Shown here: piece by piece, positions 1 through 12,381 of the stretch
Layout: each line of letters begins with the position of its first letter
How positions within the stretch are numbered: the first letter of the stretch is position 1
The notes under the pieces: generated by a model
The model's input: only the letters and a program-made list of their open reading frames with translations
Told to the model about the DNA's origin: nothing
Databases searched by the model: none
NCBI GenBank assembly: GCA_963675755.2
Contig: CAXXMD010000002.1
Location: 1,120,001-1,184,000 of the forward strand
Direction of reading: 5' to 3'
Origin: a bacterium
GTDB taxonomy: Bacteria; Zhuqueibacterota; Zhuqueibacteria; Residuimicrobiales; Krinioviventaceae
DNA: 64,000 nucleotides
Made by a program: the position numbers and the translations under genes

Positions 1-2070
1 TACCATGGGCATGGCAGCAAAATCGCGACGGTCACCCATTACAAACAACGGCACCACATGACTCAGCACATTAGAAGCCGCTTTTAATCCATCTCCCAAC
101 TGCTGTTTGTCTATGCCCAGTATTTCATGGACCTCTTCCGGGAAACCATACCAGAAAGCTGTTGTGTGAAGTTCCATTTCGGGAAGATCGATCTTGGCCC
201 AGCCGATATTTTCATGAGTATTAAACTTGATTTTTTTATACATGGTCACCAGGTTGGTTACCACAATCTCGCCATAACCCAGTGATCGGGTATCAGTATG
301 GTCTTCATCCGTAATCTCGATGACTTTGAGATCGCTCTTGAGTTGAGCATCCGTATAATGATCAACCTTGACCTGATGAACGTATGCCTTGCGTCGTTCC
401 CAATCGAGCCTGTCCACATGGAACTGTTGTCCTTCATGGATATAAATGGCTTCGTCATGCACCATCATGGGAGCGGCAAACAGATCAATCTCGCCAATCA
501 CTTTTTCCTCGGGAGTGGTTTTGTCAATTATTACCACATTTTCTTCAGCAGCACTACGCAGACTGATGGTCTCGGCAGGGTACGTTTCTGCCATCCAGTG
601 CCAGCGGTCACCTGCCTTGTGAATAACCCGTTCTTCTTCCAGGTATTCCAGAATTTCCTGTGTGCTGTCCAGTCCACCATTACCTTTCAGGTCTTCTCCA
701 AATCGTTCAGATGTAGTAAAGGGCAGTTCAAATGCCGCACATTTGATATGACTGAGCAGAATCACCAGGTTATCCGGATCAACAATGCCTGCTTCGGGTG
801 ATTTACTGAACAGGTACTCCGGATGGTTTACAATATACTGGTCCAATGGCGAAGATGAGGCTATGAGAATTGCCAACGATGATCCACTGCGCCTGCCGGA
901 TCGACCTGCCTGCTGCCAGGTACTGGCAATGGTGCCGGGATAGCCGGCCATGACGCACACTTGAAGTCTGCCGATATCGATACCCAATTCCAGCGCATTG
1001 GTACTCACTACACCGGTAATACTGCCCGCGCGTAGTCCGCGTTCAATCTCGCGTCTTTGTAGTGGAAGGTATCCACCACGGTATCCGCGGATAGAGCTGG
1101 CAGGTTTCTTTTTGTGGCGCATATGATCTTTTAAATATGTCAAAAGGATCTCTACATTCATGCGACTGCGAACGAATACAATAGTCTGCAGCATATTTTC
1201 AATAAACCGCGAAGCAATACGTTCGGTCTCCTTGATATAAGACCGGCGAATACCCAGTTCCCGGTTTACTACAGGCGGATTATAAAGGATAAAATATTTT
1301 TCTCCCTGCGGAGCGCCATTGTCATCTACCAGGTTCATAGGTTCACCGGTGAGTTTTTGTGTCAATTCCACGGGATTCGCAATGGTTGCGGAACAGCATA
1401 TAAACACAGGATTGCTGTTGTAAAACCGGCAAATGCGTTTGAGACGTCGCAGTACATTACCCAAATGACTGCCAAATACACCACGATAATGATGGATCTC
1501 GTCTATGACAATATATTGTAAATTCTCAAAAAGTTTAACCCAGGTCGTATGATGCGGTAATACGCCCGCATGCATCATATCCGGATTGGTAACAACAATA
1601 TGTCCCGAACTTTTGATCGCTTTGCGTGCAGATACCGGGGTATCTCCATCAAAGGTATAGCTTTTGATATCAAAATCAACAGATTCACCCAACAGTTCAA
1701 TAACTGAATGCAGCTCTGAAAGCTGATCCTGAGCAAGAGCTTTGGTAGGAAATAGATATAACGCCCGAGCCTCACGGGATTTAAGAACAGCATTGAGAAC
1801 AGGGATATTATAACACAGGGTCTTGCCAGAAGCAGTAGGTGTAACAATGACCGTATTTTTTCCATCCAATGCAGAACCTATTGCCTGTGCCTGGTGGGTA
1901 TACAATTGTTTGATTCCATGCTGCTGTAAAGCCGAAACAATTCGGGGATCCAATGTATCCGGAAACGGTGCGTACCGTGCCTCCCGTTCCGGCAAATGCT
2001 TCCACAAAGTTGCATTGCTGTTAAATCCGGGATCACGTTTTAGAATATCAATTACCTGGTCAATTGTCAT
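1..2070 (-). CDS. DEAD/DEAH-box helicase with DUF1998 (MrfA/YprA/SftH-like); 3' end runs off the window
   Basis: Not in the ORF track because it is open at the window edge. Hand translation from ATG 2070 gives MTIDQVIDILKRD..., LYTHQ (Q motif), TPTASGKT (motif I), YLFPTKALAQDQ, VTNPDM, IDEIH (DExH), SATIANP, ALELGIDIG, QQAGRSGRRS, and LFVMGDRRD at the edge. Confidence 0.93.
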   Translation of the reverse strand, partial: MTIDQVIDILKRDPGFNSNATLWKHLPEREARYAPFPDTLDPRIVSALQQHGIKQLYTHQAQAIGSALDGKNTVIVTPTASGKTLCYNIPVLNAVLKSREARALYLFPTKALAQDQLSELHSVIELLGESVDFDIKSYTFDGDTPVSARKAIKSSGHIVVTNPDMMHAGVLPHHTTWVKLFENLQYIVIDEIHHYRGVFGSHLGNVLRRLKRICRFYNSNPVFICCSATIANPVELTQKLTGEPMNLVDDNGAPQGEKYFILYNPPVVNRELGIRRSYIKETERIASRFIENMLQTIVFVRSRMNVEILLTYLKDHMRHKKKPASSIRGYRGGYLPLQRREIERGLRAGSITGVVSTNALELGIDIGRLQVCVMAGYPGTIASTWQQAGRSGRRSGSSLAILIASSSPLDQYIVNHPEYLFSKSPEAGIVDPDNLVILLSHIKCAAFELPFTTSERFGEDLKGNGGLDSTQEILEYLEEERVIHKAGDRWHWMAETYPAETISLRSAAEENVVIIDKTTPEEKVIGEIDLFAAPMMVHDEAIYIHEGQQFHVDRLDWERRKAYVHQVKVDHYTDAQLKSDLKVIEITDEDHTDTRSLGYGEIVVTNLVTMYKKIKFNTHENIGWAKIDLPEMELHTTAFWYGFPEEVHEILGIDKQQLGDGLKAASNVLSHVVPLFVMGDRRDFAAMPMV

Positions 2071-2081
2071 AATCTATTTTC

Positions 2082-4424
2082 CTAATTACGAATAATCTCA
2101 ACAGTTCCGGTTTCACCGTTTATTTCAATCAAATCACCATTTTTTATAAGCTGGGTTGCACTGGCAATTCCTGTTACCGTAGCAAGGCCAAATTCACGTG
2201 CAACAATGGATGCATGAGAAAGTACGCCCCCGGTTTCCAGCACCATACCCGAGATATAGGAAAAAACCGGTGACCAAGCTGGATCCGCAGAATGGGCAAC
2301 CAATATCTCATCATCGCCAATTTGTCTGGCCTGATCCAAAGTACGGGCAACAAACGCCCTGCCCCTGCTAATGCCTCGACTGACTCCAAATCCCTGCAAT
2401 CGTTCAAAATCATGCGGTTCATGTGATTTGGGTTGGGCTTGAGATCCTTCCAGCAATGATTGATACGCCTGCTTTCTTGATTGAATTTGCTCGTCAGGGA
2501 TTGTTGAATCAATAAAAGATTGAATCAATTCAGCCCGATCCATAAAAAACACATCATCTGCATGGACGAGTTTATCAGCTTTGTATAATATATTACCATA
2601 TTCAATGACAACATCCCGCATTACAGATAAAATCTTGTGCCACTCGTTGCGCTGATTTTCTCGCAGCAGCGTAAATTCTCTGGCGTATTTCAATAATAGA
2701 AAAAATATCCCTTTTAACAAAGGACGAATAAATAGGGACTGGTTATTAATTTGCTGAATACAGTTCTGTTCTGCCTGGTTGCTACGATTCAATAAATCCT
2801 TACGATTAGTAGAAAATTTCTCACCTGCGTTATTATTCTTGTTTAAAAGATCAGTCATATCTTTCCAAACCGGTTGAAAAATATCCAGACTTTCTGAACG
2901 GTGGCCATACAATTCATGAAAAGTTTTGATATCAGCATCCGTTTCAATAGCAAGCATAGCACGGTTGGCTTTGATTGTCTCATTCTCTTCAAAACCGGTC
3001 AACAAATCCGTCAAGGTCTCTTCAATCTGTTTGATTTTGCAGATTTGAAGACATTTTTTCAACAAGGCATAAAATATATCGGCAAAGGTTATACTCCATC
3101 GATGGAGTGATAAAAACCGGTCTGTTAGTTTTTCTGCTTCCTCAAAAACTGAAAACAATTTATCCTTTTGAGACAATTGGGCTTTCAATACCGGTAGTTT
3201 TTCTTTGTTCAGATTGGAAAATTGTTTCCATTTTATCAAATTCACACCAGGAATCCAGTTAAAATCACCGGTTAAAATCAAACGAAACAGATAGCGGAAT
3301 CCACGCCAGCTGTTTCTAAACCAGACATTACGATGTCCCAATAACAGTGATGCCTGTTTATCAAGCGAGATAAAATTTAAAGGAATGACAGAATATAGAC
3401 TTTGAAATACGGAGATACGTGTAAATGGAAATCCTTTAAACAACCGGGTTATATTTTCGGATGTAGCAAGCTTTCCATAGCCTAATCCTTTCAAAGGATC
3501 ACGATAAGCATTATTTTCCATCCATTTTTGTAATATGGACCAACCCAGGGGTGATAACGGTTTTGTAAAGCGCTCTGCAAAAAAATAATCAGTCCAGATT
3601 CCCCCCTCTTTATCAACGCGAATGCGTTGTCTGCTTACACTGTTGGTTACAGGACGGGATTGTAAAATCCAGACTTTATTGTTCTCAATTGCCCATTCAA
3701 TATCCTGATTGGCACCAAGTATCAATTCGATTTTGAGTCCCAGTTCAAGCAGTGATTTTAGCTGATCAGCAAATTCTGTTTGTTGTGACAAGGTTTTCCA
3801 CAGCCCGGTATTACCGGTTACAGATTTTATCGCTAATCCATTTCGGTTAATAGATATCCGTACCGGATCTATTTCACCGGACACCAGGCCTTCCCCATAT
3901 CCCTGAACAATTTCTAGTAAAAATGTATCCTGGTCACCAGTTACCGGATGTCGGGTAAATAATACACCCGCAAAATCAGGATTTATCATTTGCTGCAGCA
4001 TGACAGCCATCACTGCATGTTTATCAGAAAATCCAAATTGTTCCAAGTAGGTTGATACATGTGATGAGTCCAAAGATTTCCAGCAATCAGATATGGCATT
4101 TACCAGATTCTCCTTACCGGAAACATTTAAAAACGTTTCAAACTGACCGGCCAGAGAAAAGGATGCATGGTCTTCAAATGGAGCTGAAGAACGGACTGCG
4201 TATTTATTTTGAGGATTAAAGTTGGTTAGCGAGTCGAGTTGTTTTTGCAGTTTAAATAAAGATTTGCTTCTGTATTTTTTAAAAGCACAAGTAGTTACAA
4301 CATAAAATTCAGGAACAGGTATACCCATTTCAGCAAGTAAAGATAACCTGCCGGCTTTGGCACCGGTCAGGTTAATATTGGATGCACATACAGCATCCTT
4401 ATGTAAAATAGCGTTTATCTTCAT
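2082..4424 (-). CDS. PEP/pyruvate-binding (PPDK_N ATP-grasp) plus C-terminal PEP-utilising swivel domain; rifampicin-phosphotransferase-like dikinase architecture
   Basis: GAKA, AVRSSAPFED, LAGQFETFLNV, QDIEWAI..ILQSRPVT at the N-terminus. C-terminal GGVLSHASIVAREFG carries the phospho-His. No PEP-synthase TIM barrel after the swivel domain. Confidence 0.85.
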   Translation of the reverse strand: MKINAILHKDAVCASNINLTGAKAGRLSLLAEMGIPVPEFYVVTTCAFKKYRSKSLFKLQKQLDSLTNFNPQNKYAVRSSAPFEDHASFSLAGQFETFLNVSGKENLVNAISDCWKSLDSSHVSTYLEQFGFSDKHAVMAVMLQQMINPDFAGVLFTRHPVTGDQDTFLLEIVQGYGEGLVSGEIDPVRISINRNGLAIKSVTGNTGLWKTLSQQTEFADQLKSLLELGLKIELILGANQDIEWAIENNKVWILQSRPVTNSVSRQRIRVDKEGGIWTDYFFAERFTKPLSPLGWSILQKWMENNAYRDPLKGLGYGKLATSENITRLFKGFPFTRISVFQSLYSVIPLNFISLDKQASLLLGHRNVWFRNSWRGFRYLFRLILTGDFNWIPGVNLIKWKQFSNLNKEKLPVLKAQLSQKDKLFSVFEEAEKLTDRFLSLHRWSITFADIFYALLKKCLQICKIKQIEETLTDLLTGFEENETIKANRAMLAIETDADIKTFHELYGHRSESLDIFQPVWKDMTDLLNKNNNAGEKFSTNRKDLLNRSNQAEQNCIQQINNQSLFIRPLLKGIFFLLLKYAREFTLLRENQRNEWHKILSVMRDVVIEYGNILYKADKLVHADDVFFMDRAELIQSFIDSTIPDEQIQSRKQAYQSLLEGSQAQPKSHEPHDFERLQGFGVSRGISRGRAFVARTLDQARQIGDDEILVAHSADPAWSPVFSYISGMVLETGGVLSHASIVAREFGLATVTGIASATQLIKNGDLIEINGETGTVEIIRN

Positions 4425-4437
4425 TCATGTGTCTTGA

Positions 4438-5436
4438 TCAATTCCGGCTTTTTAATTTAACGCTGTTAATTTGATCTAGCTGCAATTTTTCTAATTCTTT
4501 GTCAAAATTGTCCAGTAATTTCAACATTTCAAGATCATCTACCATATCTTCTTTTAACGGCAAACTTTTACTATTATGATCTAAAATATTCTTTTTACTA
4601 TCCAATGTCAGCGTAAGAATGCTGCCATACTTGCCCATACTTACAGAAGAGGCTACAATTGCGTCAAATTTATCACGCGGGTTAACTAGATAATATTGCC
4701 CGCCCATAATCGCGATATCAATATCAGGTACCGTTTCCAGAATATCTTTTAATTTTTTATAATTGCCATTATACAACAATACAACCAGATCTGCTTTTTT
4801 CTTGACCTTGGGTACCAAGTCTTTAGCTACCAGAACCGGATCTTTGCAATATAACATTGGCTCTTTTAATCGTTTTGAAAAGAGCATACCTCTGTCATCA
4901 CATAAACCAATTAAACCCAAAGAAATAGATTTGAATGGCAATCCACTGTCATCCTGTGCTTTGACAGTTTGAACTTGAAAAGGCTCGGTAAACGGTTCAT
5001 CCGTATCTTGATAAAATGTATTGGACGCAAGAAAATTGATATCATTCTCTTTTGCAAGCTCTTTCAAAACCTCACCACCGTTAATAAATTCACGGTGGGC
5101 CAGATTTATATTCTTGTATCCAAAACCGGACATGGTATGGACAAGGTAATCCGTATATAACTGGCTGATTTGATTTGCACCACGACTAAAGCCGCCGGCA
5201 TCCAGAAATACATTAAAATTGTTTTCATTTAAATGATCTTTAATAAAAGTAGCCCGCCGGGCTACTCCGCCGTAGCGTGCGGTCTTTCACCCACAGGGGC
5301 GAACATAGCCCATCAGATCATTTGTATGAAATATACTCAGCGTAGCAGTTGCTGTTGAATCTACTGCCTCAGAAGTACGTCCACAACCCAGGACCAATAT
5401 GGCTATAGATACAACAAATTTCATCAGTGTTTTCAT
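4438..5436 (-). CDS. UshA-like (5'-nucleotidase N-terminal metallophosphoesterase fold) selenoprotein lipoprotein; Sec at codon 50 (TGA 5287-5289)
   Basis: Continuous frame MKTLMKFVVSIAILVLGCGRTSEAVDSTATATLSIFHTNDLMGYVRPCG*KTARYGGVARRATFIKD...VFLDAGG...HTMSGFGYKNINLAHREF joins the listed 4438..5133 ORF. Fold motifs lie on both sides of the single TGA. Lipobox VLGC; hairpin just downstream of the TGA. Confidence 0.88.
5246..5286 (-). promoter_or_regulatory. Candidate bacterial SECIS element
   Basis: mRNA 3' of the UGA: AAGACCGCACGCUACGGCGGAGUAGCCCGGCGGGCUACUUU. It contains the perfect stem AGUAGCCC-GGC-GGGCUACU (5248-5266) and an alternative GCUAC-GGCGGA-GUAGC. Both loops begin with G, 28 and 15 nt after the UGA. 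GC-rich patch in AT-rich DNA. Confidence 0.65.
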
Positions 5437-5495: not shown

Positions 5496-5518
5496 AATTC
5501 ATTAGCAAGAATTATATA

Positions 5519-5546
5519 CAAGCAGGGTCCCCTGTTACCCTGCTTG
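5519..5546 (-). terminator. Stem-loop after the PorV-OmpA gene (possible terminator)
   Basis: caagcagggt-N8-accctgcttg inverted repeat; U-tract is weak. Confidence 0.45.
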
Positions 5547-5558
5547 ATTAATATTCAA

Positions 5559-7379
5559 TTAATTTCGTTTTACAAATATAAAATTTTCAAGAGCTTGAAT
5601 TTCTGCATTCACCGGACCTGTTAAATCCAAAACGATTCGGGTATACGGGCCATTGGGATGGAATCCCAGTCGGGCACGAATAAAGGGTCCACGATTCAAG
5701 GGTATCTCTTTAACGTCAGAAAGCATATAGACATTGGGAACGTCTATTATCAACCGTTCAGGCGAACTAAATGTACGTGTGGTATATTCGACTTTACCAT
5801 TAAAAATAATCTGAATCACCTGATCGTTAACAGCCTTGACTGTAATCAATGCAGAGCCATTTGGCATTTCTGGTTTAGAATTATTTGTAAACAACTCAAA
5901 TTCAACACGGCGGTTACGTTCTCTTCCCTCTTCGGTAGAATTGGGCGCTACAGGCTGCATTTCACCATAACCAATAGGCATATAAAATTTCTTGTCCGTA
6001 AAATTCTTGGTCTCTTTGAGGTAATTGATCACACTGGTTATGCGCTTTTGAGACAGGCGAATATTATACCAATCTGTACCGATACTGTCAGTATGTCCGG
6101 AAACATGTACAACTGAATTGGGATAATTTGCCAGAATATCACCCACCTGATTTACAGTGGACTCGTCAGAATCACGAATATCTGATTTATCAAAATCAAA
6201 ATTGATACGCATACTTACCAAAATCTTGTTATCCGCTTTTTGCTCTACTTCAATCTTGCCGTCACTGTCAGCGGCAATTTGTTGTGCGCGAGCCAAACGT
6301 CGGGCCATTTCATCTTTCATTTTGTCCAATTCCATTCGGGACTGGCGGGCAGCTTCCAGTTCACGCTGCAGTAACTCGTCATAATTATTTTCTTTTTTCT
6401 TCTCTACACCAAAATTCAAGAGAATGGAGAAACGATGAATATCTGCTTCTAGGGCATCAACCGGAGAATAAGCATAATCAATACGCGTTTCAGAATTGGC
6501 CAGCCATTCCATAGGAATATTTAAACCAAACCCCGCAGATATGGGAGAAGCCGCAACATCATGCAATTGATATCCTGCACGCAAAAATAATAAATCCGAC
6601 AATACAATTTCACTACCCATATAATAACGTAGATTTTCTTTCAAAGTCCATGCAACATCACCGGCAAAATTAATATTCATAGATTCTGATTTACCAAGGC
6701 TATAGCCGGCACCAAAACGAAAAGTAGTGGGCAAAGGAGAAGACATGTCTCTAAATTTTGCTTTGGTAATACCAATATTCTGAATGGTACCACCAAACAT
6801 GATATCATAAAGAGTAAACTGGGTACCAACATCAATTGCAAGAGCCGAGCTCTGTTCACCGGCAAGAGTCTGGCGTAAAAATTTTACATCGGCACCTACT
6901 CCAAACACATAATCCCATAATCCCAAACGTGTACCAAAACCCAATGTTGCAAGAATATCATCACCTGTTGCGGTTCCACCGGTTTCTCTAAAATTGACAT
7001 CCATTTCAGTGATTGAACCTTCATTGAAATAGGTCAAATCCATTCCTATAACACCGTAACGCATGGGAAACGCAAAAGCAAAAGAACCTTGCTGTGTATC
7101 ATCAATCCAGTTATGAAAATTCATAGACAGCATTTCATTAGACAATTGACCCAAACCACCAATATTGTAACGCATTAGGTTCACATCATCAGCAAATGCA
7201 GTAAAGGCTTCACCCATAGCTACCTGACGCGCAGCCGGACTGATCTTGAGAAACGGAGCTCCATGGTAGCCAATTCCGGAATTAGATGCACTAAAAGCAG
7301 TTTGAGCAAGAAATGATATGAATACACAAATATAGATGTATATGTGTTTTAAATATTTTTTTTGAAATATGGTTTTCAT
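5559..7379 (-). CDS. PorV/PorQ-family outer-membrane barrel fused to an OmpA-like peptidoglycan-binding domain and a C-terminal AMIN-like domain
   Basis: FLKISPAARQVAMGEAFTA...RIDYAYSP...HRFS (PorV/PorQ-type); INFDFDKS, GHTDSIG, NIRLSQKR, GYGE..P, NRRVE (OmpA_C); PERLIIDVP...TRIVLDL (AMIN-like). Signal peptide present. Confidence 0.82.
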   Translation of the reverse strand: MKTIFQKKYLKHIYIYICVFISFLAQTAFSASNSGIGYHGAPFLKISPAARQVAMGEAFTAFADDVNLMRYNIGGLGQLSNEMLSMNFHNWIDDTQQGSFAFAFPMRYGVIGMDLTYFNEGSITEMDVNFRETGGTATGDDILATLGFGTRLGLWDYVFGVGADVKFLRQTLAGEQSSALAIDVGTQFTLYDIMFGGTIQNIGITKAKFRDMSSPLPTTFRFGAGYSLGKSESMNINFAGDVAWTLKENLRYYMGSEIVLSDLLFLRAGYQLHDVAASPISAGFGLNIPMEWLANSETRIDYAYSPVDALEADIHRFSILLNFGVEKKKENNYDELLQRELEAARQSRMELDKMKDEMARRLARAQQIAADSDGKIEVEQKADNKILVSMRINFDFDKSDIRDSDESTVNQVGDILANYPNSVVHVSGHTDSIGTDWYNIRLSQKRITSVINYLKETKNFTDKKFYMPIGYGEMQPVAPNSTEEGRERNRRVEFELFTNNSKPEMPNGSALITVKAVNDQVIQIIFNGKVEYTTRTFSSPERLIIDVPNVYMLSDVKEIPLNRGPFIRARLGFHPNGPYTRIVLDLTGPVNAEIQALENFIFVKRN

Positions 7380-7424: not shown

Positions 7425-10337
7425 TTATCGAACAACCATGAACTTGCGAAATATAGCGATTTGTTCGGATTGACCGGATTCATCGGTTATCAAGTCTGCG
7501 TGTACTTTGAGCCAATACGTACCGCTGCTTACTTTGTGACCGCTGTCATTATATAAATCCCACCAGTAATCTACAACACCGTACTTTTCTTTGGGTACGG
7601 TACTTCCTGTATCAAAAGAGAGTGAATTTCCATCAATTTCTTTAACTTTTTCACCGGCAAGTGAATACACCTCTACTTTGCGTACAATCAAAGAACCCGT
7701 TGCAGAAGCAACACGCATACGAAAATTGGTAGCAGAATATTCAAAATATGGATTAGGAGCCACTTCAACAATATAAGGCTCTCCCCCTAAATCAATCACT
7801 ACATTAGGTTCACTCGGTACCAGTACAGATCGGGTTAATATCACATTATCAATATATTCAGCCTGTATACTTCCGCCAAAAGAACTTTGCAATATACCGT
7901 CATTGATATCGATTCCATTGGTATTATCGGTAATAAGAATACCTTCACGGTTTATAAAATCACCGGTATTATAAATCCCTTGGTTGTCAGGAATCTCGTA
8001 CAGGTATATATCTTCCCTATCCAGTGCTGTATTTTTTAATGTAACTTCTAATGAATCCTGGGTGATAGGATTCAGGTTTTTGTCCATTTCATCTGTAATT
8101 CTAACAAAAATAACCTGATCAAATTCAGCCTGGCTTAGAGAAACGCCCTGATTGTTTTCAATTGTCATATTGCCATTTGTTGCCAAAACGACCAGCACCG
8201 AATCCATTGAAATATCAGTCATGTCATTTACATCCTGATACATAACAGCAAGCGTATCTCTGTCCACAACTTCGAGGGTGTCATTACCCGGAGTAAATGT
8301 TGCAGAAATTTTTATTGGAATTCCCTCACTGTTTTGAAAAAAAGATTGTTTTAAATCCAGAGTAACCGTTTCAGAGTCTCCACTTATACAGGCAGTTACC
8401 GGCACATCAAAACTCTGACGAATGGATTCAAGATTATTATCGTCAAGAATAATAAGTGCTTGATCCATTGTTTGCTCATCATCAGGTTCAGTGTCTGATG
8501 CTAAATAGCCATATGTTTTTTCTCCGTCAGAATCAACAAAATGTATTGAAGAAGCTGTTGACTGAACTTCTTCGTAAACCAGTTTCCACCGTACAAGTGC
8601 GGGTGTAACCGCAGAATTTTTTGTACTGGGATACGCATTCAGGTTAATTGACGTAATTCCCAAAAGCGCGGGTATATTTTCAAGATTTACTGTATTTATA
8701 CTCTCATCCGTATTTGCAGAAAACTCGTAAAGCGTACGGTACGGGGATGTATTTTCAATAATTCTGAACAACAAATCAATTGCGCTTCGTTGGACTGCAT
8801 TATCCGGCAAATCCAGTTCACATTCAAAAGTTTTCCAATTGGGAATCAAAGAGTCTGAATCAGTAACACCAATAGAAGATGCCCAGAAATAAGGTTTTGG
8901 GGTTACATTCACATTGGTATCATAATAATGATATTTTACAGTCACTCCCTTTAATACCGGAGTATCTTTGGGGGTATCTGTTTGAAGAAAAGCACGGTAT
9001 TGATAAACACTGTGCGCTTTGTGTTTATCTAAATATAAACGCATACCCGAGCTGGTATACGTTGTAGTACTGTCACCACTGGGACCAATCCAGCTTTGTC
9101 TCTGGATATGGTTCACGTCCGTACCGGATCTGAACTGCATTTCAAGCGAAGTATTGTCACCCGAGTTGGTTTCCGCATTCCAAAAGAGTGAATCAAAATT
9201 CACATCTTTATCTAAAACAAACAGATCAGATTCACGCCAGCCGCTTTCAAAACCAATACGAGCAGGTATGATCTTGTTTGCATCATCATCACGATGAACA
9301 ACCAACAGTTTTTCAGAATCTAGAGATTGTGAGCCAATCTGATCAACATCTTTGAGGGCTTGCAATTCAAGTTTTAATTCCCAAAAATAATCTGTGTTTT
9401 GAGGATCAACTTCAACAATTCGATTGTTGCCGGCATCCGCGATCAAAACATGCCCATTTTCAATCATATCCGCATCAACAGGATTTAACAATCCATACGT
9501 TTCATCGCCAGCCAATTCTTCTGATGGATACTGCCAGACAATCTCTTTGGATGCCCGGGAAACCAGTAATACACGATTATGTCCCTGATCAGTGATCAAA
9601 ACAAGATCCTGATCACCCTGAATATATTCAACATCTACCGGTGAACTGAGAACTAAAGAACCCAACTCCCATACAATACTCTTGTCACTTTTTTCAACAA
9701 TAATTACCCGGTCATTACCACGATCAGCAATGAGAAATTCAGAACTGTCAGCAATTTTTTCAGCATCCGCAGGATTAGACAACTGGTTGGGGCCATTACC
9801 TTCAAGCCCATTGGGATCACCATAATCCCAATCTACGGATTGGGTTTCACGGCCAATCTGTAATACTCGGTGGCTGCCCCTGTCAGTAATCAAAACACGG
9901 TATTGTTCATTTTCCAGAAACTCGAATGCATCAACGGGTAGTACAAGCTCTCCACCGGTATATTCCCAGGTAATTCTTTTCGTTACAGGATTATATATAA
10001 ACACTTTGGAGCCACTGCGCAATGGATCGGTAACCAAATAAAGGTCCTGATCATCAATCGTACGCACATCAATATCTTCAACAGCGCCCAAAGGAATCGT
10101 TTCATCCGGCCAGGTCCAGTCAAATCCACCCAGGGTAAAGTTTTCTAATTGGATATCGTTACCATCCACTTCCCATATTGGGGTTAATGTAATCAATGAA
10201 TCTTTTTGGACACCTTGCTGCACGATTGTTTTAGGAAATGGAGCTGAATCCTGCCAGGTTATTTCCTTTTGTGCAAAAATGTTGCCTGTAACTGTAGTAA
10301 ATAAAAAAATAGCAATATACAGATAATATTTTTTCAT
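7425..10337 (-). CDS. Secreted beta-propeller (NHL-like repeat) protein with Ig-like domains and a T9SS/FlgD-like C-terminal domain
   Basis: Signal peptide. Repeats P(V/A)D(A/V)...LI(T/A)DxGxxRV..IVW. C-terminal VAPNPY...VEVYSLAGEKVKEI...WDLYNDSGHKVSSGTYWLKV...KFMVVR. Confidence 0.75.
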   Translation of the reverse strand: MKKYYLYIAIFLFTTVTGNIFAQKEITWQDSAPFPKTIVQQGVQKDSLITLTPIWEVDGNDIQLENFTLGGFDWTWPDETIPLGAVEDIDVRTIDDQDLYLVTDPLRSGSKVFIYNPVTKRITWEYTGGELVLPVDAFEFLENEQYRVLITDRGSHRVLQIGRETQSVDWDYGDPNGLEGNGPNQLSNPADAEKIADSSEFLIADRGNDRVIIVEKSDKSIVWELGSLVLSSPVDVEYIQGDQDLVLITDQGHNRVLLVSRASKEIVWQYPSEELAGDETYGLLNPVDADMIENGHVLIADAGNNRIVEVDPQNTDYFWELKLELQALKDVDQIGSQSLDSEKLLVVHRDDDANKIIPARIGFESGWRESDLFVLDKDVNFDSLFWNAETNSGDNTSLEMQFRSGTDVNHIQRQSWIGPSGDSTTTYTSSGMRLYLDKHKAHSVYQYRAFLQTDTPKDTPVLKGVTVKYHYYDTNVNVTPKPYFWASSIGVTDSDSLIPNWKTFECELDLPDNAVQRSAIDLLFRIIENTSPYRTLYEFSANTDESINTVNLENIPALLGITSINLNAYPSTKNSAVTPALVRWKLVYEEVQSTASSIHFVDSDGEKTYGYLASDTEPDDEQTMDQALIILDDNNLESIRQSFDVPVTACISGDSETVTLDLKQSFFQNSEGIPIKISATFTPGNDTLEVVDRDTLAVMYQDVNDMTDISMDSVLVVLATNGNMTIENNQGVSLSQAEFDQVIFVRITDEMDKNLNPITQDSLEVTLKNTALDREDIYLYEIPDNQGIYNTGDFINREGILITDNTNGIDINDGILQSSFGGSIQAEYIDNVILTRSVLVPSEPNVVIDLGGEPYIVEVAPNPYFEYSATNFRMRVASATGSLIVRKVEVYSLAGEKVKEIDGNSLSFDTGSTVPKEKYGVVDYWWDLYNDSGHKVSSGTYWLKVHADLITDESGQSEQIAIFRKFMVVR

Positions 10338-10391: not shown

Positions 10392-11306
10392 CTAAATCTC
10401 ATCCCAGGAACTTATACTTGAACCAATGGCAATAGAGTAAAACTTTGTTAGTTCAGAATCAGCTCTTGAGGTCATGATAATAGGAACTTTGGCTCCCAAA
10501 ACAATACCTGCTGTTTTGGTATCCGCGAAATAACTTAACGCTTTATAGAAAACATTACCCGATTCAATATTGGGCATGATCAATACATCAGCATCACCAC
10601 CTACAGGACTGTCAATACCTTTGGTTTCGCAAGCGCTTTTACTGATTGCATTATCAAGCGCCATGGGACCATCAATTATACAGTTCTTAATCTGGCCTCG
10701 GTGGTTCATTTTAGTCAAAACTGCCGCATCAATAGTACACGGCATAGATTTATAATTCACTTTTTCTATAGCGGCAATCAAAGCTACTTTGGGTGTCTCT
10801 ATTCCAAGCATTTGAGCACAAGCTACAGAATTATCAATAATACCTACTTTGGCATCCAAATCCGGATAAATATTCATTCCGCCATCAGACATAAATATCA
10901 GTTTATGATATTTGGGTATCTGCAATACAGCACAATGCGATAAAAGCTTACCGGTTCTGACATCATGTTGTTTGTCTAGTACACCCTTTAACAAGGTAGC
11001 TGAAGAACAGCGTCCTTTCATAAGCGTGTCTGCAAGACGCTCACGCACAAGCTGTATAGCACGAACAACAGATTGATTTTCATTATCTGCCTGGACTATA
11101 TCAAACTGTGTAGCATCAACATTTATTTCCTTACCGGTACGGATGATGCTTTCTTTATCACCCACCAAAACGGCATCTACAATACCTTCATTGTGGGCAT
11201 GTGAAATAGCAGCGAGCACTTCGTGTTCATCTGCCATTGCAACAGCTATGGTTTTTTTAGGTTTCTTTTTAACTTCTATCAATAACTCATCAAACGTTGT
11301 GATCAT
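10392..11306 (-). CDS. ptb: Phosphate butyryltransferase
   Basis: LMKG, DGGMNIYP, DGPMALDNA, PNIESGN, TSRADS; overlaps buk. Confidence 0.9.
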   Translation of the reverse strand: MITTFDELLIEVKKKPKKTIAVAMADEHEVLAAISHAHNEGIVDAVLVGDKESIIRTGKEINVDATQFDIVQADNENQSVVRAIQLVRERLADTLMKGRCSSATLLKGVLDKQHDVRTGKLLSHCAVLQIPKYHKLIFMSDGGMNIYPDLDAKVGIIDNSVACAQMLGIETPKVALIAAIEKVNYKSMPCTIDAAVLTKMNHRGQIKNCIIDGPMALDNAISKSACETKGIDSPVGGDADVLIMPNIESGNVFYKALSYFADTKTAGIVLGAKVPIIMTSRADSELTKFYSIAIGSSISSWDEI

Positions 11307-12381
11307 AGCTTACCGCCTCTTGTGCATAGTTTTTAGGTTCTTCTTGTCCTGTTAATACACGTAGCGCCCCCAGAGCCAAAGCCTCCATCTCTTCCTCACC
11401 GGGAAATTTTAATACCTGTGCTATAAAATCAATCCGTTTTTCTATTTTCACAATAATCTCGTCATTAAATGCAATACCACCGGTAAGGACTATTGCATCC
11501 ACATTACCAGCAAGCACAGCAGCCATTGCAGCAATTTCTTTTGATATCTGATATGTCATTGCTTCAATAGCTAAATTAATGTCATTTGCAGACGATGTTT
11601 TTAATAATTGTTGAATATTATTTGATCCGGTATAGGCAACAAGACCACCTTTACCGGTTAACATTTTTAAAATCTGTTTTTCCTCAAGTTCACCAGAAAA
11701 ACAAAATCGAACCAAATCACCAGCAGGTATAGTACCTGCTCTTTCAGGGGAAAAAGGGCCATCTCCGTCAAGGGCATTATTAACGTCCACCACTCTACCC
11801 TGTTTATGAGCAGCTACAGAAATACCACCCCCAAGATGGGCAATTATGAGATTTAAATCCTCGTACTTTTTTTGCAATGATTCAGCTACTTTTCTTCCAA
11901 CGGCTTTATGATTTAACGCATGAAAAATACTTTTACGTTTAAATTGAGGATGCCCTGATAATCTTGCAACGCTATCAAACTCATCTACAACAACGGGATC
12001 AACAATAAAAGCAGGCTTTTTACAAATACCTGCAAATTTGGCCGCTAGCACACCACCCAGGTTGGACGCATGCTGACCTTGCACCCCTTTGGTTAAATCC
12101 TGAATCATCTCGGCATCTACCGCATAAGTTCCACTGGGAATAGGATTTAATAACCCGCCTCTTCCAACATAGGCATCCATATCATTACAATCAATACCTT
12201 TATTGGTAAATACATTTTGAATCAGTTCAAAACGATAATCAAGCTGGTCCATTACCGTACTAAACTGTGCCAGTTCGTCAACAGAATGATGTACTGACTC
12301 GGAAAATACCGGTTCGGTATTTTTATAAAGCGCTAATTTTGTAGAGGTGGAACCGGGATTGATAACAAAAATATTAGACAT
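11290..12381 (-). CDS. buk: Butyrate kinase
   Basis: INPGSTSTK, GRGGLL, HASNLG, DPVVVDE, HALNHKA, HLGGGISV, GPFSPER. Confidence 0.95.
   Translation of the reverse strand: MSNIFVINPGSTSTKLALYKNTEPVFSESVHHSVDELAQFSTVMDQLDYRFELIQNVFTNKGIDCNDMDAYVGRGGLLNPIPSGTYAVDAEMIQDLTKGVQGQHASNLGGVLAAKFAGICKKPAFIVDPVVVDEFDSVARLSGHPQFKRKSIFHALNHKAVGRKVAESLQKKYEDLNLIIAHLGGGISVAAHKQGRVVDVNNALDGDGPFSPERAGTIPAGDLVRFCFSGELEEKQILKMLTGKGGLVAYTGSNNIQQLLKTSSANDINLAIEAMTYQISKEIAAMAAVLAGNVDAIVLTGGIAFNDEIIVKIEKRIDFIAQVLKFPGEEEMEALALGALRVLTGQEEPKNYAQEAVSYDHNV

Follow-up and report, generated by a model that had tools for sequence, protein, structure and literature searches.

A 64,000-nucleotide stretch of bacterial DNA (positions 1,120,001 to 1,184,000 of contig CAXXMD010000002.1, assembly GCA_963675755.2; hereafter the window) carries a gene that is divided in two at an in-frame TGA by open reading frame (ORF) calling. 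We propose that this locus is one intact gene for an exported, probably lipid-anchored, UshA-like selenoprotein of 332 residues, which we consider the best explanation of the data as a whole, with a probability of about 0.85. When positions 5436 to 4441 of the minus strand were translated, they formed one frame of 332 codons with a single internal stop, and the ORF lister had returned this gene as a 49-residue ORF (5287..5436) and a 231-residue ORF (4438..5133). An earlier note, made from the letters of the window alone, had described one in-frame TGA at 5287-5289 in a gene split by the ORF caller, and re-reading the frame confirmed this description. The motifs listed in that note, VLGC, HTND, PCG-U(-K), GGVARRA and DAG, were all found in the read-through frame, HTND as part of FHTND and DAG as part of DAGG.

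To see how the TGA behaves in related genomes, we used the read-through protein as a query against 61 genomes of the same class, translating across stops. Matches were found in 59 of the 61 genomes; in 56 of them, with identities between 24% and 93%, the match contained an in-frame TGA. The five genomes without a TGA-containing match had either a stop-free paralogue of about 510-530 residues alone (G004, G037 and G041) or no match (G027 and G055). The alignment column was verified in the 30 best loci (35-93% identity, the window's own genome being one of them), and the TGA occupied the same column in all 30, within the motif [P/E]-C-G-U-[K/R]. Residues N39, D40, G43, Y44, C48 and G49 before the TGA were invariant, as were, among others, G56, G57, A59, R60, R61, A62, D79, A80, G81 and G82 after it. 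The mean column identity of this alignment was 46%, with conservation on both sides of the TGA, and a relative from the same genus (93% identity) retained the TGA. Because the TGA is fixed in one column amid selection at the protein level, it is neither a pseudogene lesion nor an assembly error. Indeed, every copy in the class in which the motif region was recovered had the TGA at this site. Assembly error, which the earlier note had raised as a way in which its reading could fail, was also looked at in the contigs of runs X1 and X2 (one sample); these carried the TGA unchanged, with 0 differences across the site, although that sample may be the source of the window, so that the match does not count as independent support.

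More distant relatives were collected in a profile-free search of a library of 1.84 billion representatives, which returned 2448 representatives at E ≤ 0.001. Among the matches at E ≤ 1e-30, 21 of 24 began downstream of the selenocysteine (Sec) column, the pattern that truncation by gene callers at the TGA would produce. Full-length coverage of the Sec region was found in 104 relatives, of which 90 had Cys-x-Cys at the column and four Cys-x-Trp; the other 10 were mostly ordinary nucleotidases with canonical motifs. The four representatives P0019, P0024, P0041 and P0076 showed P-C-G-W there, which may reflect a TGA translated as Trp under another code or a true TGG. The Cys form P-C-G-C was also read directly from DNA in records of Armatimonadota, Bdellovibrionota, Zixibacteria and Calditrichota (loci L076-L095), and representative P0004 is a short Cys form (C-A-C) that shares the same degenerate motifs. 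All six close public proteins were truncated at the N-terminus (231-273 residues), and the only named one was called "hypothetical protein". Thus, the comparison of homologues that the earlier note had recommended gave U (TGA) in 30 of 30 orthologues and Cys-x-Cys in 90 of 104 distant relatives.

The same note had reasoned that the organism must encode SelA, SelB, SelC and SelD elsewhere. A tRNA scan of the 64-kb window found no tRNA. We then turned to the whole genome (6.48 Mb, 3 contigs), applying curated cut-offs to all four components of the Sec system, and all four were found above their cut-offs: SelA with 580.2 bits, SelB with 371.2 bits, SelD with 376.7 bits and a TGA of its own, and tRNA-Sec with 68.1 bits, which ARAGORN also called as tRNA-SeC with anticodon tca. 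A genomics paper on KSB1, in its statement on these genes, reported selA, selB and selD together with an "absence of selC" (PMC9012183). Given the tRNA-Sec found here, the absence stated there is probably an annotation gap. TGA is at the same time a normal stop in this genome: the 32 ORFs of at least 250 residues in the window end with TAA (18), TAG (8) or TGA (6).

The RNA downstream of the TGA can fold into a hairpin resembling a selenocysteine insertion sequence (SECIS); the earlier note had seen a hairpin there. The hairpin (9 bp, 5267..5247) lies at +22 to +42 nt, counted from the U of UGA, and its triloop is GGC in the window gene and GGA in most orthologues. The 71-nt stretch folded had an energy of -24.7 kcal/mol (z = -2.85), a value equalled by 2 of 200 shuffled sequences. 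Across the 30 orthologues, 84.6% of the stem cells were paired, compared with 30-43% in slid controls. Pair 30-36, which joins the third positions of the Ala59 and Arg61 codons, both synonymous, covaried as UA in 19 orthologues and CG in 11 and was unpaired in none. Stem cells changed on both sides numbered 25 against 13.7 +/- 2.6 in shuffles, and none of 500 shuffles reached 25, a significance that is overstated by the shuffle control since the orthologues are mutually related. The codon for Arg60 was CGG in all 30 orthologues despite six synonymous codons. A search of positions 5150..5350 against Rfam at permissive thresholds returned no SECIS family and three matches at chance level (E 1-6.2). 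As a small consistency check (n = 2 with the UshA-like gene), an 8-bp hairpin also lies 33 nt past the UGA of the selD gene in the same genome; its triloop, GGA, is shared with most UshA-like orthologues and may be a lineage-specific recognition loop for SelB.

Taken together, the conserved TGA column, the Cys homologues, the covarying hairpin and the complete Sec machinery support the earlier reading of a 332-residue selenoprotein whose export is predicted, and on this comparative evidence the TGA at codon 50 is a real selenocysteine codon.

The frame and the homologues pointed to UshA, and we examined the fold of the read-through protein and the state of its metal site. No Pfam family passed its threshold and Metallophos was not matched; the best hit was UPF0228 (E 0.12). 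An AlphaFold2 model built from the 30-sequence alignment had a mean predicted local distance difference test (pLDDT) score of 90.3 and a predicted template-modelling score of 0.86, with the lowest pLDDT in the linker after the signal peptide and, inside the domain, in the C-G-U loop. In Foldseek, the model matched the N-terminal domain of 5'-nucleotidases, including the snake-venom enzyme, CD73, UshA and YfkN (E 1e-17 to 7e-20, TMq 0.66-0.71), and a profile search matched 37 sequences in the PDB. The solved 5'-nucleotidases have about 500-550 residues and the alignment was limited to their first ~310, and the UshA-like protein ends at residue 332, without the C-terminal substrate-binding domain of those enzymes.

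The ligands of the two-metal centre of metallophosphoesterases lie in motifs that we take to be DxH, GD, GNH(E/D), H and GH, and their positions in the UshA-like protein were taken from the profile alignment to solved 5'-nucleotidases. The Asp of DxH (D40) was retained in all 30 orthologues and its His in none. The bridging Asp of GD was Gly in all 30; the Asn of GNHE was absent from all 30 and its His was Arg or Lys in 29; the His of motif IV was present in 3, and the His of GH was Gly in 29. Since five of the six ligand positions are replaced, metallophosphoesterase or nucleotidase action is ruled out; as judged from the alignment, the two-metal centre cannot form and the protein is not a nucleotidase. 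The earlier note had taken HTND as the first metallophosphoesterase motif, but this motif is not a working one, its His and four other ligand positions being replaced.

The 49 codons before the TGA include a predicted signal sequence. As the earlier note had suggested from VLGC, the N-terminus fits a lipobox in a PROSITE-style pattern with Cys18 as the putative lipidated residue. The pattern was matched by 16 of the 30 orthologues, the window protein among them, and the remaining 14 had hydrophobic, signal-like N-termini without the lipobox Cys. The UshA-like protein is probably exported and lipidated, with cleavage at Cys18. As for the promoter that the note had placed upstream, the site GTAACA-16-TATAAT is present. 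The region holds 10 sites of this type against 5.8 +/- 2.6 in shuffles, which is no significant excess, so that the promoter is plausible and no more.

How might such a protein work? We propose that the UGA at codon 50 would be decoded as selenocysteine by the host SelA/SelB/SelD/tRNA-Sec system, with recoding directed by the hairpin that begins 22 nt further on and falls within the G-[LV]-A-R-R-A-T codons. Cys48 and Sec50, on a loop right after the first strand, would then form a redox-active selenol/thiol pair that cycles through a selenenyl-sulfide in the periplasm, with a disabled phosphoesterase domain as its scaffold. A separately encoded partner would supply the electrons; in relatives this partner is either fused (haem, DsbA/thioredoxin) or encoded next door (thioredoxin-like). 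Sec occurs almost solely at catalytic redox positions. Among 10 relatives scanned, six had fused cytochrome c554 domains; the haem-fused relative P0028 also has a DsbA/thioredoxin part, P0048 is fused instead to a DUF1573/OS_HP2 "(seleno)protein" domain, and in 8 of 20 loci of the Cys form the next gene downstream is thioredoxin-like. We favour a redox couple because of the general rule for Sec, the invariant Cys two residues before it and these haem and thioredoxin fusions and neighbours; by analogy, we put the chance that Cys48 and Sec50 form a periplasmic redox couple at about even. A bolder proposal, to which we give low odds, is that the disarmed nucleotidase domain serves as an envelope redox enzyme, for example one that uses its selenol to reduce an oxyanion, a peroxide or a sulfur/selenium species in the periplasm. 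Such a reductase would use the old phosphate pocket (invariant D40, R60, R61, N111 and N139), and, as the neighbouring genes hint, it may be linked in function to the proteins that anchor the outer membrane to peptidoglycan. On this reading, the TGA in every recovered copy of the class suggests that the chemistry needs selenium.

Several observations weigh against parts of this proposal. The assignment of selenium comes entirely from sequence, and the redox chemistry is drawn from the general rule for Sec and from fusions in distant relatives; the conserved neighbours in the lineage itself are envelope proteins (PorV/OmpA/AMIN) and a phosphoenolpyruvate (PEP)-utilizing enzyme, and not redox proteins. 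Within the domain, confidence in the model is lowest at the C-G-U loop, with a mean pLDDT of 68 over residues 41-50. The hairpin also has weaknesses beyond the relatedness of the orthologues. Its stem is largely fixed by the conserved protein motif, and just three pairs (24-42, 27-39 and 30-36) join two third-codon positions, of which 27-39 is unpaired in 12 of 30 orthologues. In the register tested, 19 of the 30 orthologues leave pair 25-41 open, and many fold with a bulged A in place of that register. Finally, the 3-nt loop is unlike the loop of the SECIS of E. coli fdhF.

Other explanations of the locus were weighed against the same evidence. Cys48 and Sec50 could instead bind a metal or cofactor at a phosphoesterase site that has been remodelled, which would make the protein a metal-dependent enzyme or a binder of metal or chalcogen. 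The C-G-U directly follows motif I, the usual place of two ligands of metal 1, and the relatives P0042, P0048, P0053 and P0059 retain ligand-type residues (DSGD, GDQEF, LSH and GGH) without the Asp/His of motif I, so that in those Cys-x-Cys subfamilies the two Cys could stand in for them; invariant D40, D79, N111, N139, R60 and R61 could supply the rest of a binding pocket. In the clade of the window, however, every ligand position except D40 holds a non-ligand residue, and the annotated neighbours include no metal-handling genes. The fusions in relatives bring electron-transfer and thiol-redox domains, which fit either reading. We regard ligation by Cys48 and Sec50 as the main rival, about half as likely as the redox couple. 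An ordinary periplasmic 5'-nucleotidase or UDP-sugar hydrolase of the UshA type that happens to bear Sec would agree with the fold and with weak sequence matches to UshA, CpdB, CD73 and YfkN, but it is very improbable for a protein of 332 residues with five of six metal-ligand positions replaced in nearly all 30 orthologues, no C-terminal substrate-binding domain and no Pfam Metallophos match, in a genome that has a separate, full-length, stop-free paralogue of 513 residues.

If the TGA were instead a true stop, the locus would be a pseudogene, two small genes or an assembly error, and the splitting by gene callers and the filing of public relatives as truncated hypothetical proteins would be in line with this. 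It is hardly credible in view of a TGA in one column in 30 of 30 loci, in-frame protein conservation on both sides, a 93%-identical relative in the genus that keeps it and contigs from X1/X2 (perhaps the source sample) without a difference. The lowest probability, close to nil, goes to decoding of the TGA as Trp or some other standard amino acid, by a code change or near-cognate readthrough. The four P-C-G-W representatives speak for it, but these may be TGA codons that a gene caller translated under another code, and the complete Sec system, the Cys in 90 of 104 distant homologues and the use of TGA to terminate both the UshA-like gene itself and 6 of the 32 long ORFs counted in the window all speak against it. 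We thus retain the reading of an intact selenoprotein gene. The features on which it is built and the annotated neighbours are given in Table 1.

Table 1. Position of the UshA-like gene, its elements and the other features described (window coordinates unless a genome locus is given)
Feature	Position	Strand	Description and basis
UshA-like selenoprotein coding sequence	4441..5436	-	332 residues, Sec at codon 50; frame, 30-sequence alignment and fold
In-frame TGA, U50 in P47-C48-G49-U50-K51	5287..5289	-	Read as selenocysteine; orthologue column, Cys relatives and Sec machinery
Terminal TGA stop of the UshA-like gene	4438..4440	-	Frame; TGA thus also works as a stop here
Putative signal peptide and lipobox L-V-L-G-C	5383..5436	-	Cys18 as predicted lipidated N-terminus after cleavage; sequence pattern
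SECIS-like hairpin	5247..5267	-	8-9 bp stem with GGC triloop, within codons G57-T63 (G-[LV]-A-R-R-A-T)
Promoter-like site GTAACA-16-TATAAT	5511..5538	-	Consensus match only (10/12); in the 122-nt gap upstream, overlapping an inverted repeat
PorV/PorQ-family barrel with OmpA-like peptidoglycan-binding and AMIN domains	5559..7379	-	606 residues; NF033709 141.3 bits (cut-off 90), PF00691, PF11741
PPDK_N ATP-binding and PEP-utilizer mobile domains	2082..4424	-	780 residues; starts 13 nt past the selenoprotein stop
Protein with one weak NHL repeat	7425..10337	-	970 residues, otherwise no family match; upstream of the PorV/OmpA/AMIN gene
Phosphate butyryltransferase and adjacent butyrate kinase	10392..12381	-	384 bits and 507 bits
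tRNA-Sec	L013, G000:C2:368514-368607	-	68.1 bits and ARAGORN
selD with selenoprotein motif C-A-G-U-A-S-K	L001, G000:C3:1425405-1426334	-	

The genes on both sides of the UshA-like gene recur among the orthologous loci. Of the 30 loci, 23 have the PorV/OmpA/AMIN gene as the next gene upstream and 16 have the PPDK_N/PEP-utilizer gene as the next one downstream, in each case on the same strand. The protein of the latter scores far below the cut-offs of all PEP synthase and rifampin phosphotransferase models. The combination of PorV, OmpA and AMIN domains in one protein looks unusual. In 4 of the 30 loci the upstream neighbour is a xylose-isomerase-like protein with a TIM barrel, exported by the twin-arginine (TAT) route, which gave no functional lead. 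Further upstream in the window, the butyryltransferase and kinase pair points, by its model matches, to a capacity for butyrate fermentation or utilisation.

The neighbourhoods of the Cys form were compared in 20 loci, with recurring neighbours annotated in one to three example loci per group. In three Bdellovibrionota loci (L086, L090 and L092, at about 1250-3004), a haem-tailed Cys form directly follows Pal-like and YbgF/CpoB-like genes, which both narrowly miss their cut-offs, at what resembles the end of a Tol-Pal-type cluster, and its start overlaps or abuts the CpoB-like gene. In three Zixibacteria/Calditrichota loci the Cys form stands beside a divergent MltD-like transglycosylase, and in 8-9 Armatimonadota loci it lies near DUF4175-like, DUF4159 and thioredoxin-like genes. 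Seven of the Armatimonadota loci (L081, L083, L085, L088, L089, L091 and L095) share a conserved block of four genes, encoding a DUF4175-like protein of ~700-780 residues, DUF4159, a UshA-like CGC protein with cytochrome c554, and a thioredoxin-like protein. The recurrence of genes for proteins that bridge outer membrane and peptidoglycan should be taken as a lead rather than a result.

These findings correct the annotation of a gene whose short form, throughout a class of uncultivated bacteria, is filed as a truncated hypothetical protein, since gene calls end at the Sec codon and the short form falls below the cut-off of the curated model. The superfamily concerned, UshA-like CxU/CxC, is very large and has been catalogued since 2008. 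The short, soluble, haem-free form makes the redox hypothesis testable, since the metal site is lost, Sec is predicted in 56 of 61 genomes of the class, and relatives have haem or thioredoxin parts fused or adjacent.

The gene belongs to a known kind, the CxU/CxC UshA-like superfamily, and is not a new kind of system. A survey of the Global Ocean Sampling data in 2008 lists "COG0737, UshA-like, CxU" among marine selenoproteins and, where it discusses the families, counts UshA-like as one of the few major ones without a recognised Cys-based redox motif (PMC2398784). The family lists in reviews of 2022 (PMC9312934) and 2026 (PMC13188914) include UshA-like CxU with the models NF041198 and NF049981, the latter as family 2. 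The earlier note had described UshA-like CxU proteins as selenoproteins by computational prediction, without a known function, and this agrees with what these three sources say of the family. In the main-text passages on UshA-like selenoproteins, no tested function is given and the short form is not named, while supplementary tables may list short forms; a literature search returned no paper joining selenoprotein, nucleotidase and multiheme.

The best model for the window protein is NF041198, UshA_like_PCGU (E 8.6e-37, profile positions 3-296 of 519), but its score of 126.9 bits (118.2 bits in the genome search) is below the cut-off of 275. Both have P-C-G-U at the same place after the first strand, a disarmed N-domain of the 5'-nucleotidase type, predicted export and an alternation of Sec and Cys. 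On the other hand, the window protein lacks profile positions ~300-519, which form a multi-haem tail like that of cytochrome c554, and is a predicted lipoprotein of 332 residues without a CxxCH motif. Two library relatives, P0056 (296.6 bits) and P0028 (376 bits), pass the NF041198 cut-off, both with PF13435, and others just below it are also haem-tailed. The second model, NF049981 (UshA_like_Sel_2, 262 positions), describes a short UshA-like selenoprotein, and the N-terminal 50 residues around the motif align with it. The match, confined to profile positions 1-53, gave 29.1 bits where the cut-off is 140, and the motif listed for this model is CxxU (PMC13188914), whereas the window protein has C-x-U.

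Among solved structures, the model of the window protein suggests the same fold over the whole mature protein as in the 5'-nucleotidases UshA (1ush/2ush), CD73 (4h2f) and B. subtilis YfkN (3gve), and the motifs NDxxxxL, GGxAR, DAG, SAN and GKY are shared with them. Unlike these enzymes, it has lost the two-metal site, has no C-terminal nucleotide-binding domain and has gained a Cys-Gly-Sec motif. The thiosulfohydrolase SoxB is a two-manganese enzyme and the sulfur-cycle member of the same superfamily, periplasmic as the window protein is predicted to be. Its model TIGR04486 matched weakly (E 2.2e-10, far below the cut-off of 550 bits), with the metal ligands absent here, and scored higher on Cys-x-Cys relatives that keep ligands (148.5 bits for P0048 and 166.9 bits for P0028). 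What differs here from these known systems is the short, stand-alone form, a lipoprotein by its sequence pattern and below the curated cut-off, with Sec predicted in every copy seen in the class.

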